From Candidatus Dojkabacteria bacterium (GTDB lineage: Bacteria > Patescibacteriota > Dojkabacteria > GCA-002793355), in contig WFTI01000035.1 of NCBI GenBank assembly GCA_015485585.1, positions 1-44,587 on the forward strand: DNA of 44,587 nucleotides, written 5' to 3'. Shown here piece after piece: positions 802-43,048 of this stretch; positions within the stretch are counted from its first letter, which is position 1; every line of letters starts with the position of its first letter. The notes under the pieces are model-generated. The model did not search any database. It had not been told where the DNA came from and worked only from the letters and a program-made list of their open reading frames with translations. Both the position numbers and the translations under genes were made by a program.

Positions 802-1128
802 TTACTCCTTCAAAAGTTTCTCTAAATATTCTACCTTCTCTTCTATTTTACGCAACTGTTCTTTTAAACGTTGTAAAAGAGCTACAGCCAACTTTGCAGC
901 ATCAAGCTCTTCTTCTACAAAATAAGATATAGGCTTCTCAAGCTCCTCTGCTAACCTTGCTAACACTTCAACAGGTGGTGTAACTTTTGCTTTTTCATAA
1001 GCACTTATACTTTTATCAGAAAGTCCGGTAAGTAATCCTAGATCTCTTTGACTATACCCTTTCTGTTTGCGAGCAGCCCGCAACCTTTTAGCGATTCTAA
1101 TACGGATAGAATCTGGACTTGGAACCAT
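802..1128 (-). CDS. XRE-family (HTH_3) transcriptional regulator with C-terminal coiled coil
   Basis: RLRAARKQKGYSQRDLGLLTGLSDKSISAYEKAKVTPP is a typical XRE HTH; leucine-heptad tail. Confidence 0.88.
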   Translation of the reverse strand: MVPSPDSIRIRIAKRLRAARKQKGYSQRDLGLLTGLSDKSISAYEKAKVTPPVEVLARLAEELEKPISYFVEEELDAAKLAVALLQRLKEQLRKIEEKVEYLEKLLKE

Positions 1129-1134
1129 ATACGA

Positions 1135-1140
1135 ATTCTA
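1135..1140 (-). promoter_or_regulatory. -10 element TAGAAT (TGn-extended), 6 nt before the XRE gene ATG
   Basis: Minus strand tgaTAGAATtcgtatATG. Confidence 0.65.
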
Positions 1141-1154
1141 TCATAAATAGAAAA

Positions 1155-1634
1155 CTAAACGGGCTTTGCTTGTTGTCTACGAACCCATTGTACAAACCAC
1201 GCTCTAAGTCTCTTAAGAAAATAGATAGCGCCAACAACCAATAAAAACAGTAAGATCCAGAGTGAAGCTAAGTAAACTTGTTTTAAAACCTTATATTCAG
1301 GAGTAATGGGAACAAGCTCAAGGGTTTCTGAAAATCTCAAAATAGTCTCTTTGTTCACGGCATTTATCGTACCACCGCTATTAGAGATTACAGTAAATCC
1401 TATACGGAACTCTCCAGCCACCTGAGGATCAACCCAGAATTTTGTTATGTAACGCTGCCCTTTCTGCGGCGTATTAATGACATGTTTTGAAGGTTTTATG
1501 AATACCCCCTTTACTCCACTTGCACGTGGGATAACCTCTATTTTATCTACTTCTTCATCAATCCATACAATCACCTCTACTGGCACAACCTTGTTCCAAG
1601 GATACTGGGTGTTTACCTTAATATCGACCTTCAT
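1155..1634 (-). CDS. hypothetical beta-rich (Ig-like?) protein with C-terminal transmembrane anchor
   Basis: Alternating Val/Ile beta-strand pattern; hydrophobic LWILLFLLVVGAIYFL followed by KRLR; ATGA overlap with the upstream gene. Confidence 0.65.
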   Translation of the reverse strand: MKVDIKVNTQYPWNKVVPVEVIVWIDEEVDKIEVIPRASGVKGVFIKPSKHVINTPQKGQRYITKFWVDPQVAGEFRIGFTVISNSGGTINAVNKETILRFSETLELVPITPEYKVLKQVYLASLWILLFLLVVGAIYFLKRLRAWFVQWVRRQQAKPV

Positions 1635-2443
1635 AGTTGATCTTCGTCTATCTGAAATTCCAGCAATATTTTATCAAAATCCTCAAAAAACTCTTCGCTA
1701 GGTTCAAGTAACCAATTAAAACGCATTCCTCCTCTAAAATACTGCGTAATAAGAGGTGATCTTGGGGTAAGATGATACCTACGACTCACGAATGAAGGGT
1801 CAGCTAATACGAAGTTACTTACATACCTATACGAGGGGTTTTTTACTATCTCTAACTTTTCATTCCGAACAAGAGGAATAAAGGGTGGTAATCTCTTCTT
1901 GGTTTCAATGGTATTCTTGGGTTGTTTCTTGTTATGAATCTCGATAAATACAAGGGGGGTTTCTCCGATATTTACCACACAATACACCCACTCAGGAGGG
2001 ATAACTAACTTGTTTGCCTCATTTAACCTGATCATGAACACACTATCTTCTACACTTTCAAAACTATAAGGATGATCCACTATTTTATAAGGATACAAAA
2101 TAACTAAAGCTTCCCCTTCAACAACCTCCAAGACACGCGCATATTGTTTGTTTACCACCGGCTTTGTACGAGGAAACTCAACCCCCACAAAAAAAGGATT
2201 AATCGCTGAAAGCTTAATACGGATATTATCTTTACCTCGATTCACCGCTCGGGTAAGCCAAGCGGTAAGATACACAATATCAGTAAAGATCATCACCGCA
2301 TTTAAAAAAAACCGTTTTAATTGACTAATTTTATGGACAGTTACATCAGTAATATCATATGTCCAATGAGTCACGGAAACCTGAGGAGAAGAGAGATCAA
2401 TAACCACAGGCAATCTACACCGTTTATAAAGCTCAACCCGCAT
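1631..2443 (-). CDS. cupin-type (archaeal-type) glucose-6-phosphate isomerase homolog, metal ligands apparently lost
   Basis: EFPRTK..., VLEVVEGEALVIL and IPPEWVYCVVNIGETPLVF resemble the cupin PGI motifs TKGHxH..E and VPPxWAHxxVNIGDEP. Confidence 0.65.
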   Translation of the reverse strand: MRVELYKRCRLPVVIDLSSPQVSVTHWTYDITDVTVHKISQLKRFFLNAVMIFTDIVYLTAWLTRAVNRGKDNIRIKLSAINPFFVGVEFPRTKPVVNKQYARVLEVVEGEALVILYPYKIVDHPYSFESVEDSVFMIRLNEANKLVIPPEWVYCVVNIGETPLVFIEIHNKKQPKNTIETKKRLPPFIPLVRNEKLEIVKNPSYRYVSNFVLADPSFVSRRYHLTPRSPLITQYFRGGMRFNWLLEPSEEFFEDFDKILLEFQIDEDQL

Positions 2444-2448
2444 ATCGA

Positions 2449-2454
2449 ATTATA
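2449..2454 (-). promoter_or_regulatory. -10 element TATAAT (TGn-extended), 5 nt before ATG 2443
   Basis: Minus strand ttgcTATAATtcgatATG. Confidence 0.7.
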
Positions 2455-2463
2455 GCAATGCGA

Positions 2464-3498
2464 TCAAACCTCTTCTTCGTTCTGAGTTATCCAAGGCGAA
2501 AAATACACGCGAGTACGAATGTATTTATGATATTCTCCAAAACCGTATTCATCGGGTTTTTTGGTTCGCAGCTCTTTCTGATATTGTTTTACTTTACTTG
2601 ACGCCCCATCAACAACCGATACGATTATAGCCTCAATAGTAGCTGGCCGTAAAGGAGATCCATACTCAAGCTCTCCATGATGCGAAAGAATAATATGGAA
2701 AAGATGTAGTTTATACTCTTCAGGAAAATCTTCACTTAAGAAACGGTTTACTATCTCTATTCCAAGATTAATATGCCCTAAAAGATGGCCCTTTTTGGTT
2801 CGACGTATATTGGTGCGTAAGGTTTCGTATTCTATGATCTTACCGATATCGTGTAACAATATACCTGCTATAACTATATCACGGTTAGCTTCTGGATAAT
2901 GAGGTAAGATCGCTTCAGCCATATGCACCATCTCAAGCGTATGCTCAAGAAGCCCTCCAGGATAATCGTGGTGTACTGTTTCTCCTGCTGCAGAACGTTT
3001 AAAAGCCTCACTAATAATAGGATCTTTAAAGATATTTTCAAGTAACTTCTTAATATGTGGATCTTGTATGGTTCCGATAATATCTAGTAATTCTTTATAA
3101 AGTTTCTCTACATCTTCTTGCAAAAGATTTGCCACAAGCTGGGTAAGTTCAACCTCAAACTCAGTAACCCTTTTAAGTTCTGTAATCCTAATGTATCTTT
3201 TACCATTAAACTCTGTAAGGAGTCCTCCTATCACTACTATATCTCCTTCCTTTAACTCGGTGATATTACACCTTTCAAAATCTTCTTGCCATATACGCGC
3301 TGGAATACGGCCGGTTCGATCCCCTAATTCTAGACGAAGATACGGAGTGCCATCACTTGTACGATGTTGGCGCAGGTTAAAAACAATAAAGGGTTCCTGT
3401 TCAATTACATTACTAAAGTCATCAGTCTGAAACAAGTGTTGAGCCCAATAGTTTTTTACGTACTTACGTGGAGTATTTACGTTGCCTTGCGATGCCAT
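2464..3498 (-). CDS. yhaM: 3'-5' exoribonuclease YhaM/Cbf1 family (OB fold + HD domain)
   Basis: N-terminal OB fold (LELGDRTGRIPARIW); HH-x-x-x-GGLLEHT, LLHDIGK and ILSHHG-x-LEYGSP motifs. Confidence 0.88.
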   Translation of the reverse strand: MASQGNVNTPRKYVKNYWAQHLFQTDDFSNVIEQEPFIVFNLRQHRTSDGTPYLRLELGDRTGRIPARIWQEDFERCNITELKEGDIVVIGGLLTEFNGKRYIRITELKRVTEFEVELTQLVANLLQEDVEKLYKELLDIIGTIQDPHIKKLLENIFKDPIISEAFKRSAAGETVHHDYPGGLLEHTLEMVHMAEAILPHYPEANRDIVIAGILLHDIGKIIEYETLRTNIRRTKKGHLLGHINLGIEIVNRFLSEDFPEEYKLHLFHIILSHHGELEYGSPLRPATIEAIIVSVVDGASSKVKQYQKELRTKKPDEYGFGEYHKYIRTRVYFSPWITQNEEEV

Positions 3499-4354
3499 AT
3501 AGCTCTATTATAAACCCTAACAAAATAAGAAATATAAAGAAGCTTTGCCCTGCTGTAAACGGCGTATTAATTACATATCTTTCTAAAATAACAGTCACAA
3601 GGCTCTGAAGATACGTAAACATCATAAGTTCTGAAACCTCAAAATAATTTAAAGCCTTTGTAAAAAGATGATTACCTATAACCCCTGTGACTATAGCTAC
3701 AAAAAGTATACGCCAATCAACGTAAAAACTATATTGTATTAAAGCTGTTGGGTTCGTAAAAAGAATAATAACTAAAAAGCCAATAAAAGATAGCACAATA
3801 GTAAGAGTATTGTACTCTTCAACAAACCTCTCTTTAACATGTTTTTTATAAAGGACAACACCGATAGTGGTGGCCACAATACTAAGCACTGTTAGAATCA
3901 CTCCTAACCATGAGGTCTCTAAGGTTAAATCATAACGTATAAGGGTAAGTGCCAACGAGGCAATAATCACGATGGTTGATCCTATAATTTCAAACCTGCC
4001 CATCTTGTCATGGAAAAATAAGACTCCAACCAAAATAAACAGAAGAGGAGTAAGATTCCCCATAAGGGTAACTAAACCAGCAGGAGCATATGCTAAGGCT
4101 TCATAAAAAAGCCAGAGGGCAATAAAACTATAAAAAAGAGCAGAGATCACAACAGGTAAATTTTTAAGGGTTGCCTTAAATTCAGTGGGTTTTATATAAC
4201 TTCTATTAAGCAGAAGAAGCAGTAACGTACCATAAAAGTAACGGAAATAAAGTAATACTGAGGCACCATATTCTGTCACCACTCCTTCAGCTATGATTGG
4301 GGTAACCCCAAATATGAGTACAAACCCAAGAATATACAAAAAAGCTTTTAACAC
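3464..4354 (-). CDS. EamA/DMT-family transporter
   Basis: About 296 aa with ~10 TM helices in two repeats; FR and L-x-P motifs of EamA; exact start uncertain. Confidence 0.8.
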   Translation of the reverse strand: MLKAFLYILGFVLIFGVTPIIAEGVVTEYGASVLLYFRYFYGTLLLLLLNRSYIKPTEFKATLKNLPVVISALFYSFIALWLFYEALAYAPAGLVTLMGNLTPLLFILVGVLFFHDKMGRFEIIGSTIVIIASLALTLIRYDLTLETSWLGVILTVLSIVATTIGVVLYKKHVKERFVEEYNTLTIVLSFIGFLVIILFTNPTALIQYSFYVDWRILFVAIVTGVIGNHLFTKALNYFEVSELMMFTYLQSLVTVILERYVINTPFTAGQSFFIFLILLGFIIELYGIARQRKYST

Positions 4355-4388
4355 CTCCTTCTTGTTTCAAATATTACCTATCTTTCAA

Positions 4389-4462
4389 AGCTGGAGCCGG
4401 GATTCGAACCCGGGACCCCACCCTTACCATGGGTGTGCTCTGACCAACTGAGCTACTCCAGC
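4389..4462 (-). tRNA. tRNA-Thr(GGT)
   Basis: Anticodon arm CACCC-AT-GGT-AA-GGGTG; T-loop GGTTCGAATCC. Confidence 0.96.
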
Positions 4463-4467
4463 CTCCA

Positions 4468-4539
4468 AGCCGGGAGTGGGATTCGAACCCACGACCCGCG
4501 GTTTACAAAACCGCTGCTCTACCGCTGAGCTATCCCGGC
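4468..4539 (-). tRNA. tRNA-Thr(TGT)
   Basis: Anticodon arm GCGGT-TT-TGT-AA-ACCGC; acceptor stem GCCGGGA/TCCCGGC. Confidence 0.96.
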
Positions 4540-4562
4540 TATTACTAGAAATTATACTAGAT

Positions 4563-5153
4563 TCAGCTAATAAACAACAAGCTTAGATTAACCCAAAGTC
4601 TGGTGACAAGCCCAAAAAATGTTTCAGAAAAGAGCAACAAAAACACCAGAAGGGCAATAATTCCATATCTTTCATAGTCAGATAGCCTGTATATGTCTAC
4701 ATATTGACGATTCAACAGCAAAAACAGAGCTTTCCCACCATCTAAAGGTGGAAATGGCAAAAGGTTAAAAAACGCTAAAGCAAAATTAATAAATGAAAAC
4801 TGTAGTAAAAAGACTTTTTCTATATTAAACACTGAAAGTAACACTAAGGCAAGCATGGTAAGTAAAAGGTTTGCTGCTGGGCCTGCTAATAAGGTTGTGA
4901 TAGGCGCAACTGTTCCTTTTAATCTAAGAAGCGAAAAGTCTACCGGCACAGGTTTAGCCCAACCGATTTTGAAGAATATAAATGCCAGGCTACCCCATAT
5001 ATCAAGATGTTTTAAAGGATTCAAAGTCAAACGCCCTGCAAGTTTAGGAGTATTATCACCCCACCAATACGCCACCTTTGCATGGGCATATTCGTGTAAG
5101 ACCACTCCGATTATTAACGAAACTATTAAAGGAAAATCTGTTAGAAATTCCAT
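4563..5153 (-). CDS. site-2 protease (M50-family membrane zinc metalloprotease)
   Basis: HEYAH, GRLTLNPLKHLD, GWAKPVPV, AGP and FNLLPFPPLDGG motifs; TATAAT at 5159-5164, 5 nt before the ATG. Confidence 0.93.
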   Translation of the reverse strand: MEFLTDFPLIVSLIIGVVLHEYAHAKVAYWWGDNTPKLAGRLTLNPLKHLDIWGSLAFIFFKIGWAKPVPVDFSLLRLKGTVAPITTLLAGPAANLLLTMLALVLLSVFNIEKVFLLQFSFINFALAFFNLLPFPPLDGGKALFLLLNRQYVDIYRLSDYERYGIIALLVFLLLFSETFFGLVTRLWVNLSLLFIS

Positions 5154-5166
5154 TTTTTATTATACC

Positions 5167-5240
5167 CGCGCCCGGCAGGACTCGAACCTGCAACCTCTGG
5201 TTCCGCAAACCAGTGCTCTATCCAATTGAGCTACGGGCGC
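5167..5240 (-). tRNA. tRNA-Arg(GCG)
   Basis: Anticodon arm CTGGT-TT-GCG-GA-ACCAG; D-loop has A20 (TTGGATA), the Arg identity element. Confidence 0.94.
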
Positions 5241-5276
5241 AAAATCGTTAATATATTATATCTGAAGAACCTAAGG

Positions 5277-5624
5277 TTATTGAGTATTTTGTTCCCCATT
5301 ATTGTTTTCTTTTTGATTCTGCTCTCCTTCGCCTCCATCATTCTTTTCTTTCTTTAAAGGAGGCTTATCAGGCCAGATCTTCTTCTTCTCTTCAGGAGGA
5401 AGTACTAGCTTTAAAACAGCTTCAGATGGTTGAGCACCTTTCCGTAACCATTCCTCATACGCTTTCATATCGATCTTGACACCATCTTTCTCAGCCTTTG
5501 GATCATATGTACCTATTAATGCAACATATTTACCTGTATTGCGTTTTCTGCGGGCATCCACAACTACAATACGGTAGAATGGCCTGTGTTTTCGTCCAAT
5601 ACGCATTAATCTGATCCTTAGCAT
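5277..5624 (-). CDS. rpsP: 30S ribosomal protein S16 with a low-complexity C-terminal tail
   Basis: MLRIRLMRIGRKHRPFYRIVVVDARRKR...IGTYDP...WLRKGAQPS. Confidence 0.97.
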   Translation of the reverse strand: MLRIRLMRIGRKHRPFYRIVVVDARRKRNTGKYVALIGTYDPKAEKDGVKIDMKAYEEWLRKGAQPSEAVLKLVLPPEEKKKIWPDKPPLKKEKNDGGEGEQNQKENNNGEQNTQ

Positions 5625-6379
5625 TATTCATGATCTTTTATCTTATCTCTCTGTTTATACAATTTATCTAATGCCTTCCAAGCAGCATCTGCTTCAGCCT
5701 CTTTTTTTGAAGCTCCAGTTCCTGAGGCTAAAACGTTACCTTGTATTTTAACATGAACCGTATAAGTCTTTGCATGATCTGCCCCTTCTTCTTTTATAAC
5801 CTCATATTCTGGCAACACATGCCATCTTTGCTGCGTATATTCTTGGAGCCGAGTCTTAGAATCATAATATGACTTGTTTTGAATCACCTCATCAACCCTT
5901 GGAAAGACTGTTTTAGATACCCAACTACGAGCCTCATCAAGTCCGGCATCTATATACAAAGCTCCTAAAATGCTCTCATAAACCGCGGCTAAGATATGAG
6001 GTTTTTTATAACCTTTTGAGGCGTATTCGCTTCTGCTCATGATAATGTATCTGTTAATTCCTGTGTTTTGGATTATCTCGCTTAAGGTTTTTGTATTAAC
6101 AGCCACTGATTTCACCTTACTCATTACTCCTTCATCAAGCTCTTGATAAAACCGATAAAGATACTCACTAACCAGCAGATTTAATACACTGTCACCCAAA
6201 AACTCCAACCGCTCATAAGAGTAAAGGGGACGTTTAAGCTTTTTTAAGATATTTATATACGAACGGTGGGTAAGTGCAGCAAGAAGCAAACTTTTATCTT
6301 TGAAACTATATTCTAAGATCTCCTCTACCTTCTGTATTGATCTTTGCTCCGCTTCTGTTAAATTGAAAGTAAGGACCAT
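5624..6379 (-). CDS. rnc: ribonuclease III
   Basis: ALTHRSY and ERLEFLGDSVL signature; C-terminal dsRBD (DSKTRLQEYTQ...GTGASKKEAE). Confidence 0.97.
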   Translation of the reverse strand: MVLTFNLTEAEQRSIQKVEEILEYSFKDKSLLLAALTHRSYINILKKLKRPLYSYERLEFLGDSVLNLLVSEYLYRFYQELDEGVMSKVKSVAVNTKTLSEIIQNTGINRYIIMSRSEYASKGYKKPHILAAVYESILGALYIDAGLDEARSWVSKTVFPRVDEVIQNKSYYDSKTRLQEYTQQRWHVLPEYEVIKEEGADHAKTYTVHVKIQGNVLASGTGASKKEAEADAAWKALDKLYKQRDKIKDHE

Positions 6380-6391
6380 GATAAATTATAC

Positions 6392-6799
6392 TTATTCTGA
6401 TTCCAGTAGTTCAGGAAACTCATTTCGTAAGATGTTTCCTAGTACACCGTTTACAAATCTATAGCTTTGGTCTGTTCCGAACCTTTTTGCAAGCTCAACA
6501 GCCTCATTAATTCCTACCTTAACAGGCACTGCCTTAGCATAAAAGGTCTCAGCGATCGCTACTCTTAACACCGCATGATCAGGCTTGTTCAAACTTTCAA
6601 GAGGACGTTTGGGAGAATATTTCTGTATTAACTCATCGATCTCATTGCGATGTTTTGCAAGCACCTTTTTAATCGTTCGATATCGCTCTTTATCAAACTC
6701 CTCTACCTCATATTTAAATGAGGGCTCACCTAATAATTCAGCATACTCTTCTTGGATAAGTTTTACACGTGTTTTACGAAACTTATCAATATTCTGCAT
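6392..6799 (-). CDS. nusB: transcription antitermination factor NusB
   Basis: DHAVLRVAIAE, VGINEAVELAKRFG and FVNGVLG motifs. Confidence 0.93.
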   Translation of the reverse strand: MQNIDKFRKTRVKLIQEEYAELLGEPSFKYEVEEFDKERYRTIKKVLAKHRNEIDELIQKYSPKRPLESLNKPDHAVLRVAIAETFYAKAVPVKVGINEAVELAKRFGTDQSYRFVNGVLGNILRNEFPELLESE

Positions 6800-6801
6800 A
6801 T

Positions 6802-6963
6802 TTAATATTTCTTACAGTTAAAACAAACCATGTGTGGAATCTTTAAATGGCCACAGTATTTACAACGCACAGGATTCTGCAGAATATTGATAATCTTACG
6901 CATCTTTTTTTTCATATTAACCCGTTTTTTACGTCGTGATAAACGTCGCTTAGGAACCGCCAT
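6802..6963 (-). CDS. rpmF: 50S ribosomal protein L32 (not in the ORF track)
   Basis: Manual translation MAVPKRRLSRRKKRVNMKKKMRKIINILQNPVRCKYCGHLKIPHMVCFNCKKY*; MAVPK start and CxxC...CxxC. Confidence 0.95.
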   Translation of the reverse strand: MAVPKRRLSRRKKRVNMKKKMRKIINILQNPVRCKYCGHLKIPHMVCFNCKKY

Positions 6964-7018
6964 TTTTCATCTGTATTTATCTTATCTTCTACTCCCTTAG
7001 TATATCACAGAAGCACGG

Positions 7019-7024
7019 TATAAT
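7019..7024 (+). promoter_or_regulatory. -10 element TATAAT, 6 nt before the mreB ATG
   Basis: cggTATAATtccgctATG. Confidence 0.7.
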
Positions 7025-7030
7025 TCCGCT

Positions 7031-8086
7031 ATGTGGATTAATAAAATAAAACGCTGGTTATCTCCTTTCTCATTTGATGTAGGAATAGACCTAGGAACAG
7101 CTAACACCCGTGTAGGAATAAAAGGTGTAGGGTTAATAAAAATAGAACCTTCAGTAGTCGCAATTAATAAAACAACCCAGGAGGTACTTGCTGTAGGAGA
7201 AAAAGCCAAAGAGATGCTTGGGAAAACACCAGCAAATATTGTAGCAGTGAGACCTCTGCGTGATGGGGTTGTAGTAGATTTTGAAACTACCCTCGCAATG
7301 TTAAGACATTTTATTCAGGTAGCTAAAGAAAGGGCAGCCTCATCTAGTATTCTTGCACGTCCCCGCGTACTTATTGGAGTACCTTTTACTATTACAGATG
7401 TTGAGAAAGAGGCAACTATAGATGCTGCTTTATATGCTGGAGCTAAAGAAGCATATGTGATTGAAGAACCAATAGCAGCAGCAATCGGTATCGGATTACC
7501 TATTCAAGAACCCCAAGGTAATATGATTGTAGATATAGGAGGAGGGACAACAGATATCACCATTATCTCCCTAGGAGGATTAGTTGTGGATAAAACCATC
7601 CCCATAGCAGGTGATGAGATGGACACAGCCATTATTGAATATGTCAAAAACACCTACGGTCTCCTTATAGGTCCTCAAACAGCAGAAGATATCAAAAAGA
7701 CTCTTGGGAACATCTTAGTAGAGAAAAATCCTAAGAAATCTCTAGTCCATGGAACCGATATAAATACCCGTCTTCCGCATAGTATTGAGATCTCTGAGGC
7801 TGATGTTGCTGAAGCACTGTATCCTATAATAGCTCGGATTACCGATGCAATTAAAGAAGCTTTAGAAGAGGCACCTCCTGAGATCAACGCGGATATAAGG
7901 CAAAGAGGAATCTATATTACCGGAGGTGGTAGTCAGATTAAAAACCTAGATAAGTTCTGGCAAAAAGAGTTAGATATTCCTGTAAAACGAGCGACAGAGC
8001 CTCATTTAAGCGTTTTAAAAGGGATCCTTAAAGCCTTTGATAATCTTGAATATATCAAAAAACTACAAGAACGCCCCTTAATTTAA
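7031..8086 (+). CDS. mreB: rod shape-determining protein MreB
   Basis: GIDLGTANT, EPSVVA, RPLRDGV, EEPIAAAIG, VDIGGGTTD and TGGG motifs. Confidence 0.97.
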   Translation: MWINKIKRWLSPFSFDVGIDLGTANTRVGIKGVGLIKIEPSVVAINKTTQEVLAVGEKAKEMLGKTPANIVAVRPLRDGVVVDFETTLAMLRHFIQVAKERAASSSILARPRVLIGVPFTITDVEKEATIDAALYAGAKEAYVIEEPIAAAIGIGLPIQEPQGNMIVDIGGGTTDITIISLGGLVVDKTIPIAGDEMDTAIIEYVKNTYGLLIGPQTAEDIKKTLGNILVEKNPKKSLVHGTDINTRLPHSIEISEADVAEALYPIIARITDAIKEALEEAPPEINADIRQRGIYITGGGSQIKNLDKFWQKELDIPVKRATEPHLSVLKGILKAFDNLEYIKKLQERPLI

Positions 8087-8099
8087 CGAAAATTATTAG

Positions 8100-8897
8100 A
8101 TGACTAACCGCAGAAAGATACAGCACTTTATTCTAGTTGGAGGTTTTACCGTTGCATTTAACATCCTCCTTTTCATAGGTGCCTTTTTCAGTGTCTATTC
8201 ACGGATACTCTATCCTTTACAATTCGGGGTGTTGTTTATTAAATCAGAGATTGAATCAAAAAAGATAAAGATACAATCTATCATCGAATCTCTGAAAGAA
8301 AGCACCCGTTTAAAAGAGAAACTCTTAGAACTTCAGGTTGAAAATATCAAATTAAGAGAAAAACTAACAAACCCAACAAATAACACTTTATCCACCCTGA
8401 ACAATAAAAAGGTAATACCAGTAAAAATCGTTGCTATTAATTACCCACAGCAAGGATTAATTATCGGGTTAGTTGATCAGACCTATAGTGAACTACTAAA
8501 AGAGACATTCCAAGATAACACTACCCCACGTTATGTGATCACAAAAGATGGTATCTTTGTAGGAAAAGTAAAAACAGTAATCTCTCCATGGATTATTATT
8601 GAAACCCTATACACTAACGGTTTTGAAGTACCAGTAGTAATTCCATCCACAAAAGAAGTGGGCATCTTAAAAAAGACTCCTGAGGGACTTATTGTCGATG
8701 AGATAACAAAAACAGAAAAGCTAAAATTAAAAGAGATTGTTAAAGTAATAGACCCAAATGGATTATCAAACCTTATACCTGTAGGCATCATAGAAAATAT
8801 AGAACCCAAGCATGCGTCAAACAGCGTTAAACTAAAGATTACTCCCACATGGCAAATAACCAAAACCGAGGATAACATCTTTGTAATAATCCGATGA
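8100..8897 (+). CDS. mreC: rod shape-determining protein MreC (divergent)
   Basis: N-terminal TM, coiled coil (EN-x-x-LR), beta domain with GIFVGKV and IPVG; lies directly after mreB. Confidence 0.75.
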   Translation: MTNRRKIQHFILVGGFTVAFNILLFIGAFFSVYSRILYPLQFGVLFIKSEIESKKIKIQSIIESLKESTRLKEKLLELQVENIKLREKLTNPTNNTLSTLNNKKVIPVKIVAINYPQQGLIIGLVDQTYSELLKETFQDNTTPRYVITKDGIFVGKVKTVISPWIIIETLYTNGFEVPVVIPSTKEVGILKKTPEGLIVDEITKTEKLKLKEIVKVIDPNGLSNLIPVGIIENIEPKHASNSVKLKITPTWQITKTEDNIFVIIR

Positions 8898-11397: not shown

Positions 11398-11400
11398 GTT

Positions 11401-12099: not shown

Positions 12100-12100
12100 T

Positions 12101-12526: not shown

Positions 12527-12547
12527 AGCGGTATTCTACATCATGTC

Positions 12548-36017: not shown

Positions 36018-38463
36018 CTCCTTCTAAAGTACACACAGACTCAACAATCCTCTTTCGTATCCTGTTAACCTCCTCTTCTTTGAGTGTACGTTTAAACGAA
36101 GCAAATCGGAACCTAAACGTAAGGTTTCTACTTCCATCTTGGTTGTGGTACACATCAAACAATTCGTAAGAAATCGATATATCGGTATGATCAGACTCTG
36201 CTATAGCCTCCTCTATCTTATCTACAAGCTGTTGATAAAATACACCTTTGGGGGTTACAAAGCAAACATCTTGGTAAACAGGGGGGAAACGTAACGGAGG
36301 CATCACCCCACCTTCTTTTTTTGCTTTCTTTACAAAAGGAGAAAGATTGATCTCCGCTACGAACACAGGATAATTAAGACCAAGATTATAAAGTACTTTA
36401 TGTTTCAATGCACCAATAATACCTACTACAACCTTATTATCAGAAACTACAACTCCTGAGGCATACGGATTAAAAGCATCACGAATATCCGTAAAAATCG
36501 GATCATATATCTTCTTCTCCAGCGGTGTTACACTCAGCTTTTCATTAAGGACCTTTTCAAGCTTCTTGATATAACGGGTTAATACATTAGGTGAGAGTTT
36601 CCGTAAAGTATCATAGATTACCATGCCAAGATGTAACCGTTCGTTAGGAACATTTTCGGAGTTAGTACCAAGCCCTTTTGAAAAAACCGATCCTATTTCA
36701 AAAAGATACATCCGCTGAGTATAAACCTTATTATGAACTAAAGTCTTAATTAAGGATCCAAAGATATTTGATCTCATATACTCTACATCTTCTGAAACCG
36801 CGTTAACTATTCTATAGAGGTTTTTAGTAGGAATTAGAAGATTTGCATACTCTTCTTTACTTACGAACACATAATTTATCGCCTCAATAAAACCTAAAGT
36901 AGAAAGCTGGCTGCGGATCTTAGAAGCAAGAAACAGTTTATCATCGACCCTACTTTCACGATGAGTAATTATAAGAGGATTAAGTCTAACCTCTTTATAT
37001 CCCTTTAACCTGACAATCTCTTCATAGATATCTTCAGGAATTTCTACATCAAACCTATATGTAGGAACCGAAACAGTAATCTTTTTGTCTTTTTGATTAT
37101 TTAGCATAAACCCTAAAGCTGTAAGCTTTGTGATGTCTTTCTGATCTATCTTAACATCTAAAAACTGCTCTGCTTTGTCTAAATCGAAAGTAATATGGCG
37201 TTTTCGTGAAGGTTTCTCATATTTCTGCACCCAACCAAGAGGATCTACATAGTTTATTAAAAACTCTACTACTCCTTCTATCTTTTCAGGATCTTGCTGT
37301 CGTGAAAACACTACTGAAGCATCAGTAAATATACCCGTATTCATTACTGTACGTCGTACGGATGTCTTCTTAAACGTAGCGATCTCAAAGAGTACCTCTT
37401 TAGTTGATTCATCTACTGCTGTCTCTTCACCTCCTATTACTCCTGCGATGGCTACTGGTTTGTTATTACAAAGGATTAAAAGAGCCTCTTTATCAGAGAA
37501 GGTTCGTACTGTTCCATCAAGAGTAGTTAGAGATTCTCCTTCTTTGCTCCATCGTACAGAAAATTCAAGATTGCTAGAACCACTAACCTTTTTAAGTTTC
37601 GTAAGATCAAAGGCGTGAACAGGTTGGCCAGCAAGTAACATAATATAATTAGTGAGATCAACTGCTAAAACTCCATGCACCTTAATTCCATGTTTTTTCA
37701 AGAAAACCCTAATGTCAAACGGAGTACTTTCTGTTTTTAAGGTCGCTTTTACCAAAACATAACGCCAAACATCTTCTTTTTCGGTATGAGCAATCTTTAC
37801 ATCATCTAACCTATCTAACTTAATGCCCTTTTTATACCACCACCTCGGAGGACTAAAGGATAACCCTAGCAAAGCACCCAGCTCTTGGGCCATACCTATT
37901 ATGGAGAAAAGGTCTCCCCGATGGGTAAGCGCTTTATTCTCTATTTCAATAATAACTTCATCTTTTCCAAGTAATGAAGCTAAACTTTCTCCAATTTTAA
38001 AGTTAAAAACCGTATCGGTTATAGGAAATACCATTATGCGGTCATGTTCGTTACCCAGGCCAAGCTCATAAGGACTATTAAGCATCCCTTCAGAGATTAC
38101 ACCTTTGAACTCTTTCTTGCTAATAACTCCATCCCATTTATCTGGGTAAGGATTAACAGGCACTTTACCACCTACCCGGGTGTAGGGTACAAGATCACCT
38201 GGTTTTAAATTACCAGCACCTGTAACTACGGTTTTTTGCCCTTCTTTACCAAGGTCAACCTTCACAACCCATAGTTTATCTAAAGCGGGATGTTTCTTAA
38301 CCTCAAGCACTTTTGCCACCAGCACATCTTCATATTCGTCTCCAAAGGAGCTTACGGTTTCAACCTCTGATAAAGCCTCTTCTATTCGCTCAATAATCTT
38401 TTCTTTCTCTATCTTATCTAAACCCTTCACAAATAAAGCAAGTTCTTGTAAGGCAAACCTCAT
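35995..38463 (-). CDS. pheT: phenylalanyl-tRNA synthetase beta subunit
   Basis: tRNA-binding OB (HPALDKL, SEGML), RGDLFS, GQPVHAFD, B5 (RFDV...DIYEEIVR) and FDX-ACB domains. Confidence 0.96.
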   Translation of the reverse strand: MRFALQELALFVKGLDKIEKEKIIERIEEALSEVETVSSFGDEYEDVLVAKVLEVKKHPALDKLWVVKVDLGKEGQKTVVTGAGNLKPGDLVPYTRVGGKVPVNPYPDKWDGVISKKEFKGVISEGMLNSPYELGLGNEHDRIMVFPITDTVFNFKIGESLASLLGKDEVIIEIENKALTHRGDLFSIIGMAQELGALLGLSFSPPRWWYKKGIKLDRLDDVKIAHTEKEDVWRYVLVKATLKTESTPFDIRVFLKKHGIKVHGVLAVDLTNYIMLLAGQPVHAFDLTKLKKVSGSSNLEFSVRWSKEGESLTTLDGTVRTFSDKEALLILCNNKPVAIAGVIGGEETAVDESTKEVLFEIATFKKTSVRRTVMNTGIFTDASVVFSRQQDPEKIEGVVEFLINYVDPLGWVQKYEKPSRKRHITFDLDKAEQFLDVKIDQKDITKLTALGFMLNNQKDKKITVSVPTYRFDVEIPEDIYEEIVRLKGYKEVRLNPLIITHRESRVDDKLFLASKIRSQLSTLGFIEAINYVFVSKEEYANLLIPTKNLYRIVNAVSEDVEYMRSNIFGSLIKTLVHNKVYTQRMYLFEIGSVFSKGLGTNSENVPNERLHLGMVIYDTLRKLSPNVLTRYIKKLEKVLNEKLSVTPLEKKIYDPIFTDIRDAFNPYASGVVVSDNKVVVGIIGALKHKVLYNLGLNYPVFVAEINLSPFVKKAKKEGGVMPPLRFPPVYQDVCFVTPKGVFYQQLVDKIEEAIAESDHTDISISYELFDVYHNQDGSRNLTFRFRFASFKRTLKEEEVNRIRKRIVESVCTLEGVTLKGAE

Positions 38464-39527
38464 CTTGCTGGTGTTAACATGTTAATGTTGTTCTGATATA
38501 AATCACGGATATCGTCGATCTTATGTTTACTCATGACTAATCTGTCGATTCCAAAGCCCCATGCAAATCCTTTATATTTTTTAGGGTCAACTCCTGCATT
38601 TTTTAATACTTGTGGGTGAATCATCCCAGCTCCTACGATCTCTAACCATTTTTTTCCTCCACAAACAGAACAGGTGCTCTCGTGTTCGCAGAAAACACAC
38701 TCTACTGCAAACTCAAGCCCTGGTTCAACAAACGGAAAATGGGCAGGCAAAACCTTATAACGCAACTCCTTTCTGAAATAATAAGAAAGGAATGTTTTCA
38801 AAGTATAGAGTAACTGACCTAAAGAAGCATCTTCTGTCACAACTACCCCCTCCATCTGATAGAATGTGTGGCTATGACGGGCATCAAGCTCTTCGTTTCT
38901 GAAAGTTTTTCCGACTACTATCGCGTATACTTCATTGTGCTTTTTCATCTGATCTCTAATTACCCGTATCTGCATATTAGATGTATGAGTAGTAGGTATA
39001 TACCCCTCTTCTGTATAGAACGTATCCCATGCTTCACGAGCAGGATGATCAGGAGGTATATTCAGATAATCAAACACATACTTGTCTATATCTAACTCTT
39101 TCCCTAAATAAACGTCAAATCCCATCTGGGTAAATATCTCAATCATACGCTCAATCTCGCGAGTGATCGGGTGAAGGGCTCCCTGCTCTAGAGGCAAAGA
39201 ATAACTCTCTAATCCTCCCTTAAACCATGGGGTTGTTATATCAAGCTCTAATTCTTTATCTTTTATATCAAAAACCTTCTCTTGTAACCAAGATGAAACC
39301 TTTTCTGCTTCTTCTTGAACCTGTAAGATTGCATTATTCACAATTTTCCCTAATAAAGCTCTGTCTTCGGGCGCCAACTTCGGAATCTCTGCCAAAAAGG
39401 CCTTAAGGGATCGTATACTACTGTTTCGCAATTTAGACAATTCTTCTAAAGAGTGAACTTTCTTACTCTCTTCAAGAAAGCGTTTGACAACCTCCTCTAT
39501 CTTTCGTCTAATATCGTCAAGTTGCAT
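38460..39527 (-). CDS. pheS: phenylalanyl-tRNA synthetase alpha subunit
   Basis: G-x-LHP, HPAR-x-x-WDTFY, THTS, FPFVEP and GFAWGFGIDRL motifs; TAATAT at 39534-39539. Confidence 0.97.
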   Translation of the reverse strand: MQLDDIRRKIEEVVKRFLEESKKVHSLEELSKLRNSSIRSLKAFLAEIPKLAPEDRALLGKIVNNAILQVQEEAEKVSSWLQEKVFDIKDKELELDITTPWFKGGLESYSLPLEQGALHPITREIERMIEIFTQMGFDVYLGKELDIDKYVFDYLNIPPDHPAREAWDTFYTEEGYIPTTHTSNMQIRVIRDQMKKHNEVYAIVVGKTFRNEELDARHSHTFYQMEGVVVTEDASLGQLLYTLKTFLSYYFRKELRYKVLPAHFPFVEPGLEFAVECVFCEHESTCSVCGGKKWLEIVGAGMIHPQVLKNAGVDPKKYKGFAWGFGIDRLVMSKHKIDDIRDLYQNNINMLTPAR

Positions 39528-39550
39528 GTTTATATATTACCATAAATTCA

Positions 39551-39898
39551 TTACTCTTTGGCAAAAGCTCGCTTAACAATGGTTCTAAAAAGATCGGGTT
39601 TGTGAATAGCTAACTCAGAGAGCATCTTACGGTTAAGCTCAATCTTTTTCTCCTTTAAACGATACATAAATTCTGAATATTTATAACCCAAAGCCCTCAC
39701 TGCAGCATTTATACGGGTAATCCATAATCTACGGAACTGATGGATTCGTTTTCGCCTATGCTTGTAAGAATACATTCCGGCATGCATATAAGCTTCATGT
39801 GCTCGTTTGTAAGTCTTATGGTATGTATAACGGTAACCTTTTGTGGTTTTAAGTATTTTCTTATGGCGTTTTCGTGTATTTGCTCCTTTTACCCTCAT
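39551..39898 (-). CDS. rplT: 50S ribosomal protein L20
   Basis: MRVK...RHKKILK, FRRLWITRINAAVR and LNRKMLSELA motifs. Confidence 0.97.
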   Translation of the reverse strand: MRVKGANTRKRHKKILKTTKGYRYTYHKTYKRAHEAYMHAGMYSYKHRRKRIHQFRRLWITRINAAVRALGYKYSEFMYRLKEKKIELNRKMLSELAIHKPDLFRTIVKRAFAKE

Positions 39899-40089
39899 AT
39901 TCTTAGTTTTTTGATTACTTTAAACGCACTCTCTTGTACCTCTTCAAAAACAGTCTTTTTCTTTCGTCTACGTACAGTGTTTCGATATTTAGAAAGAAGA
40001 TGCGACCCAAAAGCCTTTTGGCGTTTGATTAATCCACGTTTAGTAAGTTTTACCCTCTTTTTAAGGGATTTTAGCACCTTTGAAGACAT
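39895..40089 (-). CDS. rpmI: 50S ribosomal protein L35
   Basis: Basic 64-aa protein with KKRVKLTKRG...SHLLSK; between infC and rplT. Confidence 0.9.
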   Translation of the reverse strand: MSSKVLKSLKKRVKLTKRGLIKRQKAFGSHLLSKYRNTVRRRKKKTVFEEVQESAFKVIKKLRI

Positions 40090-40094
40090 GGTTT

Positions 40095-40640
40095 CTATTC
40101 TTTCTTTTTAACTAATATATGTATGTTTGATCCTTTATCTTGGATATCCACGATCTTACAATATTCACCGAGAACTGTCAATAGTCGTTCTTTTAACTGA
40201 TTCTGCAACTCCTTACTCACTCTACGTTTCTTTACAATAGTAATCTTAACAGGATGACCCTCTTCCACAAACTCTTTAACCTGATTTACCTTACGCTCAA
40301 AATCTCCTGAATCAATGAGTGGCTTGAACTTTATCTCTTTAAGTTTTGCTTCTTTCTGTTTACGACGAAGCATACGTTCTTTTTTCTGAAGCTGATAACG
40401 AAAATGCTCAAGGTCTACAATACGAGCAACTGGCGGTTTAGCAGATGGAGCCACCAACACTAGATCTAACCCTTTTTCTTGGGCAAGTTTCAAAGCCTCT
40501 TCTTTTTTGAATACCCCTAGATTTTTCCCTTCTTCATCTATTACCCTTACTTCGTCGGCTCTAATGTATTCGTTATAAGGGTGTGTCTTAACTAACGGAT
40601 CAAAAACTCTTACAAATCTTTTTTTACGAAAAGGCCTCAT
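40095..40640 (-). CDS. infC: translation initiation factor IF-3
   Basis: NEYIRADEVRVID-x-x-G-x-NLG, GLDLVLV, PPVARIVD and KEIKF motifs; ATG start overlaps the thrS stop. Confidence 0.96.
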   Translation of the reverse strand: MRPFRKKRFVRVFDPLVKTHPYNEYIRADEVRVIDEEGKNLGVFKKEEALKLAQEKGLDLVLVAPSAKPPVARIVDLEHFRYQLQKKERMLRRKQKEAKLKEIKFKPLIDSGDFERKVNQVKEFVEEGHPVKITIVKKRRVSKELQNQLKERLLTVLGEYCKIVDIQDKGSNIHILVKKKE

Positions 40641-42412
40641 TGTAAAAATATACTTCTGTTCATTTTACGCAGAATCTCTTCTTTCAGTCTACCTATAAAT
40701 TCCTCGATATTATAAAGGCCAACGTCACCATGTGATCTTACCCTTACTGCAACCGTTGAAGTGTTAACCTCTTTATCACCAACAACTACAACATACGGAA
40801 TCTTCTCTTCTTCTGCCCTTCTTATACGGTTAGCAAGAGGTTCATCTTTATCATCTACAGTAACAAGCCTTATTCCTTCTGATTCTAAGACCTCTTTTAC
40901 CTGAAAAGCATATTGAGAATGTTTTTCAGAAACAGGAATAATCCTTACCTTTTCATATTCTAGCCAAAGCGGTAGATTCCCAGCAAAGTGTTCAATTAAT
41001 AACGCCATAAAACGATGGAAGGTTCCAAAGATGGCTCGGTGGATCATTACAGGGGTTTTCTTACTACCGTCTTTATCTGTATATGTGAGATTAAACCTCT
41101 GGGGTAGATTAAAATCAAGCTGAATAGTAGCTACCTGCCATCTACGTCCTAATGAATCTTTAAGATGAAAATCAAGTTTCGGGCCATAAAATGCAGCTTC
41201 TCCTTCCATTAGGTTATACGAAACTCCGCTTTGACGCACAGCATTAATAAGCATCTCCTCTGCTTTCTCCCACACGCTATCGTCACCTAGATACTTATCT
41301 TTTTTATCGTTTGAACGTAAACTTACATCCACAGTTAGATCCTTAAACTCAAAGGTTTTATAAACATCAAACGCTAATTCAAGTAATCTTACAAGCTCTT
41401 CTTCGATCATCTCTTCGGCTAAAAATATGTGTCCATCATCTTGGGTTAAGGCTCTTACCCGCGTTAAACCATGGAGTTCTCCTGCCTTCTCATATCGATA
41501 TACTGTAGCCATATCTGTAACCCTGAAAGGTAGATCTCTATAACTTTGCACCATCTGTTTATAGATCTGAATGTGGAGAGGACAGTTCATCGCCTTAAGA
41601 TAATAAACCTCTTCATCATTAACCTTCATTTTAGGAAACATATTTTCCTCATAATAAGGAAGGTGTCCTGAGGTATACCACAATTTATCTTTTGCGATAT
41701 GGGGAGTATAGACTAAATGATGCCCTAAAGCTTTGTATTTTTCTACGATCCAATGCTCAAGCTGTTCACGCACATATGCTCCTCGTGGGAGAAACACCGC
41801 AATACCGCTACCTATGATATCGGGATCTATAAAATAGTACTTCAACCGTTTATTAAGAACGCGGTGATCACGTTTCTTGGACTCCTCACGTTGTTTAAGA
41901 AACTCCTCAAGCTCTTCTTGACTCATAAAGGCAGTACCATATATACGGGTAAGCATCGGATTCTTCTCATCTCCACGCCAATAAGCTCCCGCAATAGAAA
42001 GGAGTTTAAAAGCAACAACCTCTCCTGTACGTGTAAGATGGGGTCCTTTACAAAGATCAACAAAACCTTTCTCTTCATCGCCGATAACATAGAAACTTAC
42101 CTTCTCATCGTCAATCTCTTTTAAAAGTTCACGCTTATAGGGTTGATCCCATTTGCGGTAAAATTTCATGGCCTCTTTTTTGTCCATAAATATCTGTCGC
42201 ACAGGGAGATCTTCTTCTATGATCTTTTTCATCTCGTCTTCTATCTTTTCTAGGTCCTCATGGGTGATAGGAACAGCGAACTCAAAATCATAGTAAAAAC
42301 CATCCTCAATAACAGGTCCGATGCCCAACTTCGTGTCAGGCCATAGACGCAAAACAGCCATAGCTAAAATATGGGCAGTTGTATGTCTTAACCGTTGCAA
42401 ATAATCGTCCAT
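40637..42412 (-). CDS. thrS: threonyl-tRNA synthetase (no N-terminal TGS domain)
   Basis: RHTTAH, GFYYDF, DLCKGPH, GAYWRGD, RDHR, MNCP, AAFYGPK and IQLDF motifs. Confidence 0.98.
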   Translation of the reverse strand: MDDYLQRLRHTTAHILAMAVLRLWPDTKLGIGPVIEDGFYYDFEFAVPITHEDLEKIEDEMKKIIEEDLPVRQIFMDKKEAMKFYRKWDQPYKRELLKEIDDEKVSFYVIGDEEKGFVDLCKGPHLTRTGEVVAFKLLSIAGAYWRGDEKNPMLTRIYGTAFMSQEELEEFLKQREESKKRDHRVLNKRLKYYFIDPDIIGSGIAVFLPRGAYVREQLEHWIVEKYKALGHHLVYTPHIAKDKLWYTSGHLPYYEENMFPKMKVNDEEVYYLKAMNCPLHIQIYKQMVQSYRDLPFRVTDMATVYRYEKAGELHGLTRVRALTQDDGHIFLAEEMIEEELVRLLELAFDVYKTFEFKDLTVDVSLRSNDKKDKYLGDDSVWEKAEEMLINAVRQSGVSYNLMEGEAAFYGPKLDFHLKDSLGRRWQVATIQLDFNLPQRFNLTYTDKDGSKKTPVMIHRAIFGTFHRFMALLIEHFAGNLPLWLEYEKVRIIPVSEKHSQYAFQVKEVLESEGIRLVTVDDKDEPLANRIRRAEEEKIPYVVVVGDKEVNTSTVAVRVRSHGDVGLYNIEEFIGRLKEEILRKMNRSIFLQ

Positions 42413-42415
42413 TGA

Positions 42416-43030
42416 CTATTTTGTTTGCAAAATCTTATCAGCTATGCCGTATTGTACCGCACTTTCTGCATCCATCCAAAAATCGCGTTCAACATCTCTT
42501 GCGACCTTCTTGTGGGGTTGTCCTGTAAGGTCAGATAAAATCGCAATTAATCTTTCTTTTAACTTTTTCATAACATCAGCTGTGATCTGAAGTTCTGTAG
42601 CATCAACACTTCCTAGTCCCCCAAGCCATGGCTGATGAATCATTACCCGGGTATTAGGCAATACAAACCGTTTACCCGGGGTACCAGCTGCAAGCAAAAG
42701 AGCTCCGAATGATGCAACGTTCCCTAATCCTATCGTAACCACAGGACATTGAACATATCTTATGGTGTCAAAAATCGCAAACCCTGCATCTACCGCCCCA
42801 CCTGGTGTAGAGATATAAAGCTGAATCTCTTTTTTAGGATTCTCTTTCTCAAGATATAACATCTGAGCTACAACCAGAGTGGCTAACCTTTCATTAATCG
42901 GACCCACAACAAAAATTATACGATCTTTAAGTAATCGTGAGAAAAGATCGTAATATATTTTTACTCCTCCTCTTTCTTCTTCAAAGACCGTTGGTATTAC
43001 AAATGAATCAAACATATCTGCCTGTTTCAT
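42416..43030 (-). CDS. clpP: ATP-dependent Clp protease proteolytic subunit
   Basis: DLFSRLLKDRII, AS(F)G (Ser), MIHQP (His), ERD (Asp); TATAAT at 43036-43041, 5 nt before the ATG. Confidence 0.97.
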   Translation of the reverse strand: MKQADMFDSFVIPTVFEEERGGVKIYYDLFSRLLKDRIIFVVGPINERLATLVVAQMLYLEKENPKKEIQLYISTPGGAVDAGFAIFDTIRYVQCPVVTIGLGNVASFGALLLAAGTPGKRFVLPNTRVMIHQPWLGGLGSVDATELQITADVMKKLKERLIAILSDLTGQPHKKVARDVERDFWMDAESAVQYGIADKILQTK

Positions 43031-43048
43031 GGTAGATTATAACCCATC

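Follow-up and report, generated by a model that had tools for sequence, protein, structure and literature searches.

The window analysed here is contig WFTI01000035.1 (C35 in our numbering) of assembly GCA_015485585.1, a 44,587-nucleotide stretch of DNA from a Candidatus Dojkabacteria bacterium and one of the 39 contigs of a genome of 598,342 bases (91% complete, 38% G+C). The genome is a highly compact, Dojkabacteria-like metagenome-assembled genome (MAG) of the candidate phyla radiation (CPR), it uses the standard genetic code with all three stop codons, and twelve tRNA genes are scattered over the window. The encoded MreB is 76% identical to MreB of a Candidatus Dojkabacteria MAG, and the mreB locus of this relative (L002) is syntenic with the window between 7 and 13 kb. 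The element in question is a hexamer resembling TATAAT, in the following called the box, that precedes many start codons by 5–8 nt. An earlier sequence-only reading had listed 20 such hexamers in the window and had proposed that the organism initiates translation mostly by leaderless starts plus translational coupling, with almost no Shine–Dalgarno (SD) sites. All 20 hexamers were found where it had placed them: each of them fits TAnnnT, eleven are exact TATAAT and 5–8 nt separate them from a start codon, which is ATG in 18 cases and GTG in two. The signature claimed for the window as a whole was confirmed as well and extends across the entire 598-kb genome.

Gene starts in the window

The N-termini of the encoded proteins were aligned to NCBIfam models, where x→y gives the protein residue and the model position, and the second range given for a gene comprises its start codon and box. 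At the left end of the window, on the minus strand, are an XRE-family regulator (802–1128; 1126–1140) with TAGAAT-N6-ATG and an HTH alignment of 11→2, a 270-aa gene (1631–2443; 2441–2454) with TATAAT-N5-ATG, a yhaM-like gene (2464–3498; 3496–3512) with TATAAT-N8-ATG, a YhaM alignment of 42→23 and a probable leader of 1–2 nt, and a 196-aa gene (4563–5153; 5151–5164) that lies 12 nt after tRNA-Arg and carries TATAAT-N5-ATG. They are followed by rnc (5624–6379, minus; 6377–6390), again with TATAAT-N5-ATG, whose RNase III alignment (19→2) is such that a protein begun at the next possible start would lose part of the conserved domain; rpsP comes next by a TAATG overlap at 5622–5626 (S16 2→1). On the plus strand mreB (7031–8086; 7019–7033) has TATAAT-N6-ATG, and the same layout of box and ATG is seen in the relative L002. 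The gene for PBP2, mrdA (9312–11147, plus; 9300–9314), has TACAAT-N6-ATG inside the upstream gene and was absent from the earlier list. In rplK (12101–12526, minus; 12524–12538) the arrangement is TAGAAT-N6-ATG, the TAGAAT being kept in L002, and rplA begins 1 nt after the rplK stop (L11 3→1, L1 5→1).

Further along the window the box precedes a divergent pair (16949–16990, both strands), with TACAAT-N6-ATG at a 409-aa gene (15722–16951, minus), TAAAAT-N6-GTG at a 113-aa gene (16988–17329, plus) and 36 nt between the two starts. Further minus-strand genes are rplS (20727–21203; 21201–21216; TATAAT-N7-ATG), a 778-aa gene (21225–23561; 23559–23575; TATACT-N8-ATG), yebC (24607–25323; 25321–25336; TAAAAT-N7-ATG), a 303-aa gene (25343–26254; 26252–26266; TATAAT-N6-GTG) and mraZ (30492–30971; 30969–30985; TATAAT-N8-ATG), which heads a mraZ-rsmH-ftsL-like-PBP cluster with ATGA overlaps. 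A second divergent pair (33788–33821, both strands) joins a class A PBP on the minus strand, starting either with TACAAT-N7-ATG at 33790 or with TATAGT-N6-GTG at 33796, to a 34-aa membrane ORF (open reading frame) on the plus strand with TATAAT at 33807–33812, N6 and ATG 33819. The box of pheS (38460–39527, minus; 39525–39539) is a weak one, TAATAT-N6-ATG, and pheT follows by an ATGA overlap. In the clpP gene cluster (39551–43041, minus) a TATAAT at 43036–43041 precedes the first ATG by 5 nt, and thrS, infC, rpmI and rplT come next at gaps of 3, −4, 5 and −4 nt without SD, an arrangement that looks like a leaderless first cistron with coupled cistrons behind it.

The start codons of rplK (see above), mutL (1→1), map (ATG 19333, 5→6), yebC (1→1) and clpP (10→7) are backed by the N-terminal alignments, and for mreB, rplS, the XRE regulator and mraZ the offset is at most 10 residues. 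For pheS and the class A PBP the alignment leaves room for other starts, in pheS for one located downstream. The names 'PGI-like' (the 270-aa gene), 'site-2 protease', 'rmuC', 'yraN' and 'LytR_C' (the 303-aa gene) given previously found no NCBIfam match at E ≤ 1e-8.

Some starts deserve separate mention. The refinement of starts described below chose position 12093 for rplA (TAGAAT, spacer 4), which is probably false, as the L1 model favours 12099, 1 nt past the rplK stop; its alternative starts for mreC (8229) and for the 13762–14700 gene are tentative. Neither candidate start of the enolase gene (26240 TTG, 26276 ATG) has a correctly spaced box. For rsmH there are two candidates: the ATGA overlap with mraZ (30495, minus; 329 aa, 26-residue model offset) and ATG 30423, which lies 24 codons downstream after GAGAGGT-N5, a weaker GAGGT, and would fit the model N-terminus better. 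The 34-codon ORF (33819–33923, plus) is unannotated, encodes MKKATKEIIKK followed by a hydrophobic stretch and ends 9 nt before the recG ATG at 33933, so that recG may be coupled to it.

Frequency of the box at start codons

The positional enrichment test against a composition-matched shuffle that had been suggested for this signature was run and gave an excess far beyond chance. Using a motif-blind set, the first ATG, GTG or TTG of every long ORF (n = 519), we found TATAAT starting at −14, −13, −12 and −11 in 15, 15, 34 and 52 ORFs, respectively (116/519), and only 0–4 times at each of the other positions from −45 to −15. For a refined set, a codon-usage filter left 517 genes, 496 of them with a complete ORF 5' end; in-frame start codons deep within genes (n = 4956) served as decoys. 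With TA.AAT, TATA.T and TAT.AT counted as one-mismatch boxes, and these and TATAAT together as class 1–2 boxes, spacers of 4–8 nt gave 119 TATAAT and 88 one-mismatch boxes at the 496 starts, compared with nine (0.18%) and 61 (1.2%) at the decoys. In 200 dinucleotide-preserving shuffles of 493 upstream regions TATAAT occurred 4.1 ± 2.1 times (maximum 12) versus 117 observed, and class 1–2 boxes 26.1 ± 5.2 times (maximum 40) versus 204 observed. When the motif is allowed to choose among all starts within the first 50 codons (2.9 candidates per gene), a class 1–2 box precedes 260 of the 496 genes (52%), among which about 20 false calls are expected from the decoy rate and the number of candidates. 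An initiation of their own is needed by 327 genes, which have a spacer of at least 13 nt, a divergent neighbour or a place at a contig edge, and 208 of these carry the box. The 260 start codons are ATG in 236, GTG in 15 and TTG in nine cases, and the spacers of 141 TATAAT sites are 5 nt (57), 6 nt (45), 7 nt (23), 8 nt (15) and 4 nt (1). Every larger contig carries the signature, including C38 with the 16S rRNA gene (19 of 26 genes).

The same picture is obtained independently of gene calls. Counting the two strands together, the genome contains 665 TATAAT, which is not more than first-order Markov simulations yield (663–748), and an ATG follows at spacers of 5, 6, 7 and 8 nt in 64, 53, 31 and 19 cases (167/665) compared with 3–14 cases at each other spacer between 0 and 30; 143 of these 167 ATG begin an ORF of at least 70 codons. 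One could ask whether the signature merely reflects the AT-richness of intergenic DNA, the stop codons within TATAAT or the choice of starts, which we regard as barely credible. The upstream regions are indeed AT-rich, the TAA within TATAAT is in frame at spacer 5 and the refinement does select starts by the motif, but the excess persists with motif-blind longest-ORF starts, stands out against dinucleotide shuffles of these regions, is visible from the side of TATAAT alone and is strong at the out-of-frame spacers 6–8 too. Moreover, AT-rich loci of other phyla have no peak at the −10 position but a plain SD peak.

Promoter-like character of the box

Of the 42 tRNA and tmRNA genes, 23 have an exact TATAAT no more than 45 nt upstream, its distance varying by gene, whereas about one is expected from the genomic hexamer frequency. 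In the window the four tRNA controls named previously do have an exact TATAAT, which on these untranslated genes lies 10 nt before tRNA-Thr(tgt) (4551–4556, minus), 13 nt before tRNA-Arg(gcg) (5255–5260, minus), 12 nt before tRNA-Trp (13430–13435, minus) and 16 nt before tRNA-Ser(cga) (44367–44372, plus); the distances to the mature 5' end are thus 10, 13, 12 and 16 nt and not 11–16 nt as had been given. TATAAT is only 10–13 nt from the mature 5' end of many tRNAs, which predicts pre-tRNA leaders of about 3–6 nt, and RNase P RNA is encoded at C32:37098–37358 (133.6 bits).

The nucleotides around the box point in the same direction. The sequence-only reading had noted G or TGn in front of many boxes, and TGn does precede 81 of the 260 boxes at starts versus 387 of 5881 (6.6%) for the same hexamers genome-wide, with T in 45% and G in 41% of the aligned sites at the extended-motif positions. 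A pyrimidine occupies −1 at 176 of the 260 box-bearing starts versus 93 of 200 starts without a TAnnnT box (Fisher p = 7e-6), and G is found there in only 16 of 260. At spacer 8 an A is present at −2 in 23 of 30 sites and at spacer 7 at −1 in 17 of 36, and so the initiating purine holds a constant 6–7 nt from the box, in keeping with what RNA polymerase should do. No −35 consensus was recognized in the aligned sites. As to gene arrangement, the box is frequent where the gap to the neighbour is small: divergent genes have a box in 10 of 14 cases at gaps of 12–20 nt and in 22 of 28 at gaps of 21–40 nt, and genes with an ATGA overlap have TAnnnT in four and TATAAT in one of 30 cases. This scarcity at overlapping internal genes speaks against a ribosome-binding site, since such a site would be expected there too. 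Taken together, these features support the view that the hexamers would act as promoter elements and not as ribosome-binding sites.

The opposite view would make UAUAAU an RNA-level, non-SD ribosome-binding site resembling that of GeneMarkS-2 group B, perhaps pairing with the AUUA before CCUCC in the 16S tail GGAAUUACCUCCUUA, and we consider it very improbable. The tail, ending in ...GGAATTACCTCCTTA, would let UAAU form four A–U pairs, and 5–8 nt to the start codon is within the spacing range of a ribosome-binding site. Four A–U pairs are very weak, however, the same motif stands before the 23 untranslated genes, and TGn, the −1 pyrimidine and a palindrome read on two strands (see below) have no rationale at the RNA level. 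In addition the box is rare at operon-internal overlaps (4/30), whereas the group B motif, according to the excerpted text of PMC6028130, precedes internal genes too.

Divergent gene pairs

Among 67 divergent neighbour pairs 34 have a box on both genes. In ten pairs only 18–26 nt separate the two start codons around one shared box, which in six of them is the palindrome ATTATAAT, and such distances leave no room for a leader. The example in the window, at 19312–19335, is mutL, which starts at 19314 on the minus strand, and map, which starts at 19333 on the plus strand, with ATTATAAT at 19320–19327 giving TATAAT-N5-ATG on each strand and 18 nt between the starts, both of which agree with the MutL and Map models. 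These shared boxes look like two-way leaderless promoters with a protein-coding gene on both arms. Further tight divergent pairs are located at C4:566–585, C37:15119–15140, C14:5332–5353, C13:4042–4064, C32:4204–4226 and elsewhere.

Shine–Dalgarno sites

The near absence of SD sites claimed for the window holds for the genome. Scoring AGGA, GGAG or GAGG at −18 to −4, we found SD 4-mers at 17 of 496 starts, one among the 260 with a box and 16 among the 236 without, versus 12.8% of the 4956 decoys, and as the words stay below the decoy rate they are avoided and not just missing. Inspection of the 16S rRNA (C38:34122–35686, 1406 bits), which had been recommended, showed that the anti-SD CCUCC is intact; the gene keeps ACCUCCUUA. 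The SD-less picture has to be qualified to this extent, as with an intact anti-SD and strong SD sites at rpsA and rpmG the SD route is present but seldom used.

As described before, a well-spaced GGAGG or AGGAG precedes just one called gene start of the window, that of rpmG (ATG 13621; 13619–13633, minus; AAGGAGG-N5-ATG); all other such motifs before ORFs of at least 40 codons are inside genes or before spurious ORFs. Genome-wide, ten genes have a 5-mer SD. The best SD of the genome belongs to rpsA (C24:7930–9210), encoding bS1 with four S1 domains, where AAGGAGGT is found 9 nt before a GTG. An SD of at least 5 nt precedes rpsA in 8 of 10 family-level loci (L176–L185, own genome included) and a clear one in only 2–3 of 20 class-level loci (relatives within L176–L205). 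This conservation may reflect a dedicated SD-dependent control of S1 synthesis. The bS21 gene starts with the leaderless-type arrangement TATAAT-N7-ATG. The strong SD sites of rpmG and of a 486-aa gene at C11:10036 each stand directly downstream of a tRNA gene (tRNA-Gly(gcc) in the case of rpmG), a position that permits neither leaderless initiation nor coupling. We rejected a general rule by which a place behind a tRNA entails SD use, as only these two cases follow it and the majority of the 13 box-less genes in such a place lack an SD.

One further strong SD, again AAGGAGGT, precedes the TTG start of a 94-aa, Ala/Val/Arg-rich protein at C25:471–755 (minus). Nothing else in the genome resembles this, and the piece may have been acquired or wrongly binned; from the sequence, by eye, we take its product to be HU/IHF-like.

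Genes without a correctly spaced box

In line with the overlapping or abutting genes noted for the window, 84 box-less co-directional genes of the genome lie between 8 nt of overlap and a 12-nt gap from the upstream stop codon, among them 24 ATGA overlaps, six one-base overlaps and 22 gaps of 1–3 nt. The NCBIfam N-termini back such coupled starts for rpsP (TAATG), pheT, rplT, infC (ATGA), thrS (gap 3) and rplA (gap 1). Termination–reinitiation is the likely mode of translation for these close-set cistrons, judging from their arrangement.

Several observations weigh against a simple picture of leaderless first cistrons and coupled followers. First of all, a box at the right spacing is missing from 82 genes with an upstream spacer of at least 30 nt, of which 42 have one at −60 to −15 and an A-rich leader, and hence a leadered, SD-less route must exist too. 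Second, 59 box-bearing genes lie only 6–25 nt behind a co-directional gene and may also sit internally, without SD, on longer read-through transcripts. Third, sites with spacers of 7–8 nt probably give leaders of 1–2 nt and not of zero, the commonest spacer of 5 nt (57/141) is one nt below the 6–8 nt that the excerpted text of PMC6028130 gives for group C genomes, and some box-bearing genes may start with TTG (9/260). Furthermore, a scan for two hexamers (−35 plus −10) in window positions 1–20000 found 49 sites versus 54.3 ± 6.6 in shuffles; such a scan does not discriminate where a −35 is lacking, and without an excess the promoter reading stands on the −10 region alone. Finally, it is the motif, its spacing, the statistics, the promoter-like context and the paucity of SD that we observe directly, and the coincidence of transcription start site (TSS) and start codon is deduced from them; a search for RNA sequencing runs containing window positions 11001–21000 gave no match.

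Some of these points would suit an alternative in which the boxes are mostly weak internal promoters and protein is made mainly from long read-through mRNAs, with SD-less starts through A/U-rich unstructured regions and bS1, as in Bacteroidota and cyanobacteria, or through reinitiation. The 59 genes close behind a neighbour and the 82 long-spacer genes fit this idea, as do the A-rich box-less starts (A at −3 in 59–60%) and the bS1 with four S1 domains. On the other hand, it explains neither the 5–8 nt register of box and start codon nor the pattern of a pyrimidine at −1 and A at +1, and divergent genes cannot share read-through and yet have the strongest signature (10/14 and 22/28 at 12–40 nt). 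We therefore judge it unlikely.

Related genomes

The motif-blind statistic with decoys was also applied to relatives, where the counts per genome are small, kin are not independent of each other and the ORF finder would mis-call genomes that read TGA as a residue. With this statistic the own genome has a class 1–2 box at 201 of 517 starts (decoys 1.5%) and SD 4-mers at 29 of 517 (decoys 12%). Ten genomes of the same family (3.8–60 kb each) have the box at 66 of 309 starts (decoys 0–4.5%), with its peak at −11, and SD words at 34 of 309 with a small rise at −15 to −11. In the rest of the class (30 genomes from 13 families) the numbers are 95 of 642 for the box, peaking at −12 (33 versus a background of about 10), and 31 of 642 for SD words without an SD peak. 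The rest of the phylum (60 genomes, one region each, from 59 other families) shows the box at 93 of 947 starts (decoys 160/11296) and SD words at 191 of 947 (decoys 1189/11296), and the SD peak of the AT-rich loci from other phyla is a clear one (45/591 at −11).

The phylum sample is very uneven, with SD words at 0% to 53% of starts in the 20-kb samples (L110–L169; also the Saccharibacteria MAG L033). Some of its genomes have SD words at 40–53% of starts and no box, others resemble the present genome, and in some SD-poor CPR families TAnnnT stands at leaderless spacing in 35–45% of starts. Family and class share the signature, which is strongest in the present genome, declines from the family over the class to the phylum and comes in grades within the latter.

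Proposed model

The proposal of leaderless starts plus translational coupling is supported, as all its predictions that could be tested on the sequence, namely box spacing, promoter traits, rarity of the box at overlaps, SD depletion, close-set genes and start codons backed by alignment, were borne out. We consider it probable that in this genome leaderless mRNAs are the main route for first cistrons and coupling that for the others, where we infer the TSS position and the mode of ribosome binding from the DNA. According to this model the hexamers would be sigma-70-type −10 elements with the consensus TGnTATAAT and no recognizable −35, and RNA polymerase would begin on the A of the start codon or 1–2 nt earlier. 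The leaderless mRNA would then be bound directly via its 5'-terminal AUG, probably by 70S ribosomes or by 30S-IF2-tRNA as in other bacteria, and overlapping or abutting downstream cistrons would be translated through termination–reinitiation. Pairing of SD and anti-SD would still be possible and be used by a handful of genes, namely rpsA, rpmG and the other gene behind a tRNA.

A wider scenario, which we put forward only tentatively and hold to be rather doubtful, is that this Dojkabacteria family dropped SD as a general route: leaderless first cistrons, often from two-way ATTATAAT promoters, would be combined with reinitiated later cistrons, and the anti-SD would be kept for a small gene set headed by rpsA. 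SD would then have become a regulatory channel for ribosome composition, akin to the SD-led bS21 circuit of Bacteroidia.

Should leaderless initiation prevail in this organism and occur in grades throughout a phylum with a large share of bacterial diversity, gene callers dependent on SD will misplace starts in such genomes, and expression tools for cultivable CPR bacteria should be built as −10-N5/6-ATG cassettes and not as cassettes with a ribosome-binding site. The lineage could also serve as a natural test of what conserves the anti-SD when almost no gene uses it, with the SD of rpsA as a concrete candidate, and two-way promoters with 18 nt between divergent starts would illustrate how small genomes save intergenic space. 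If the wider scenario holds, the CPR, ranging from SD-using to SD-free to anti-SD-free lineages, would form a natural series for the loss of SD-led initiation.

Comparison with known systems

Leaderless translation is commonly regarded as peculiar to Actinobacteria, Deinococcus-Thermus and archaea. The mechanism as such is thus known, for example from mycobacteria and Deinococcus, and it seems to be barely documented in the CPR lineage. A full-text literature search combining 'leaderless' with CPR names gave no report for the CPR, while the supplementary genome lists of GeneMarkS-2 were outside this search and could include CPR genomes; in the excerpts of CPR-related papers the word was confined to reference lists, a comment concerning YchF and the context of archaeal viruses. 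Searching for 'Shine-Dalgarno' together with Patescibacteria returned papers which seem unrelated. The excerpts also indicate that a Nanosynbacter RNA-seq study (PubMed 35975994) underlies the 188 TSSs in PMC12641261.

The closest precedent is Deinococcus deserti, which according to the excerpted text of PMC4007540 has the same layout, a −10 element directly upstream and no conserved −35, with 60% of 1958 mapped TSSs being leaderless and 62% of the leadered mRNAs using SD. In genomes of GeneMarkS-2 group C 25–50% of the operons are leaderless, as stated in the excerpts of PMC6028130. Like the group C members Mycobacterium tuberculosis and D. deserti, the present genome has no conserved −35 and a large share of genes with the signature, ATG and GTG starts dominate, the −10 element stands at a fixed short distance before first genes (peak at −12/−11) and the motif behaves as a promoter element. 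Unlike in group C, the remaining genes do not turn to SD: the 4-mers at the 236 box-less starts (16) stay below the 12.8% of the decoys, and SD is below background at all start classes. An assignment to group B does not suit the genome either, where a motif before internal genes would be expected and TAnnnT is found at only four of the 30 ATGA overlaps. Further differences from group C are the Patescibacteria/CPR lineage, the small (598 kb) AT-rich genome and the commonest spacer of 5 nt, and the TSSs of the present genome are predicted ones.

Jha et al. 2021 and McNutt et al. 2023 reportedly described SD-poor Bacteroidota which retain the anti-SD and a few SD-led ribosomal genes. The present genome is similar in that the anti-SD is kept, SD is almost unused and a strong SD is found on one ribosomal-protein gene, here rpsA. 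In contrast, Bacteroidota have leadered mRNAs, as opposed to the leaderless ones predicted for the present genome, and their SD-led gene is rpsU (bS21) whereas bS21 has a leaderless-type box here. Within the CPR, Tsurumaki et al. 2022 described some Parcubacteria without an anti-SD, in which SD–anti-SD pairing is thought to be inoperative; the excerpted text (PMC9297842) makes no mention of leaderless mRNAs or promoters. The organism studied here is likewise a CPR bacterium with little SD use, but its 16S rRNA keeps the anti-SD.

Translational coupling by termination–reinitiation at overlapping stop and start codons is said to have been described by Huber et al. 2019. Our genome resembles this in its ATGA and TAATG overlaps and gaps of 0–5 nt without SD, as in rnc-rpsP, pheS-pheT and clpP-thrS-infC-rpmI-rplT, and differs from known coupling in that internal cistrons would depend chiefly on it and not have it as an option beside SD.

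Finally, the shared boxes can be compared with bidirectional −10 promoters, whose TSSs are about 18 bp apart on one −10 region with reciprocal −7T/−11A (Warman et al. 2021, as reported in the excerpts of PMC10268837). As in these promoters, divergent starts would be placed on one pseudo-symmetrical −10 element with A/T reciprocity, and the 18–26 nt geometry of our ten pairs matches the bidirectional TSS spacing only if the TSS is the start codon. Unlike in the known cases, the distances here are 1–4 nt above the 18-bp optimum, and both arms, for example mutL and map, would yield translatable leaderless mRNAs and not an mRNA together with a non-coding antisense transcript.

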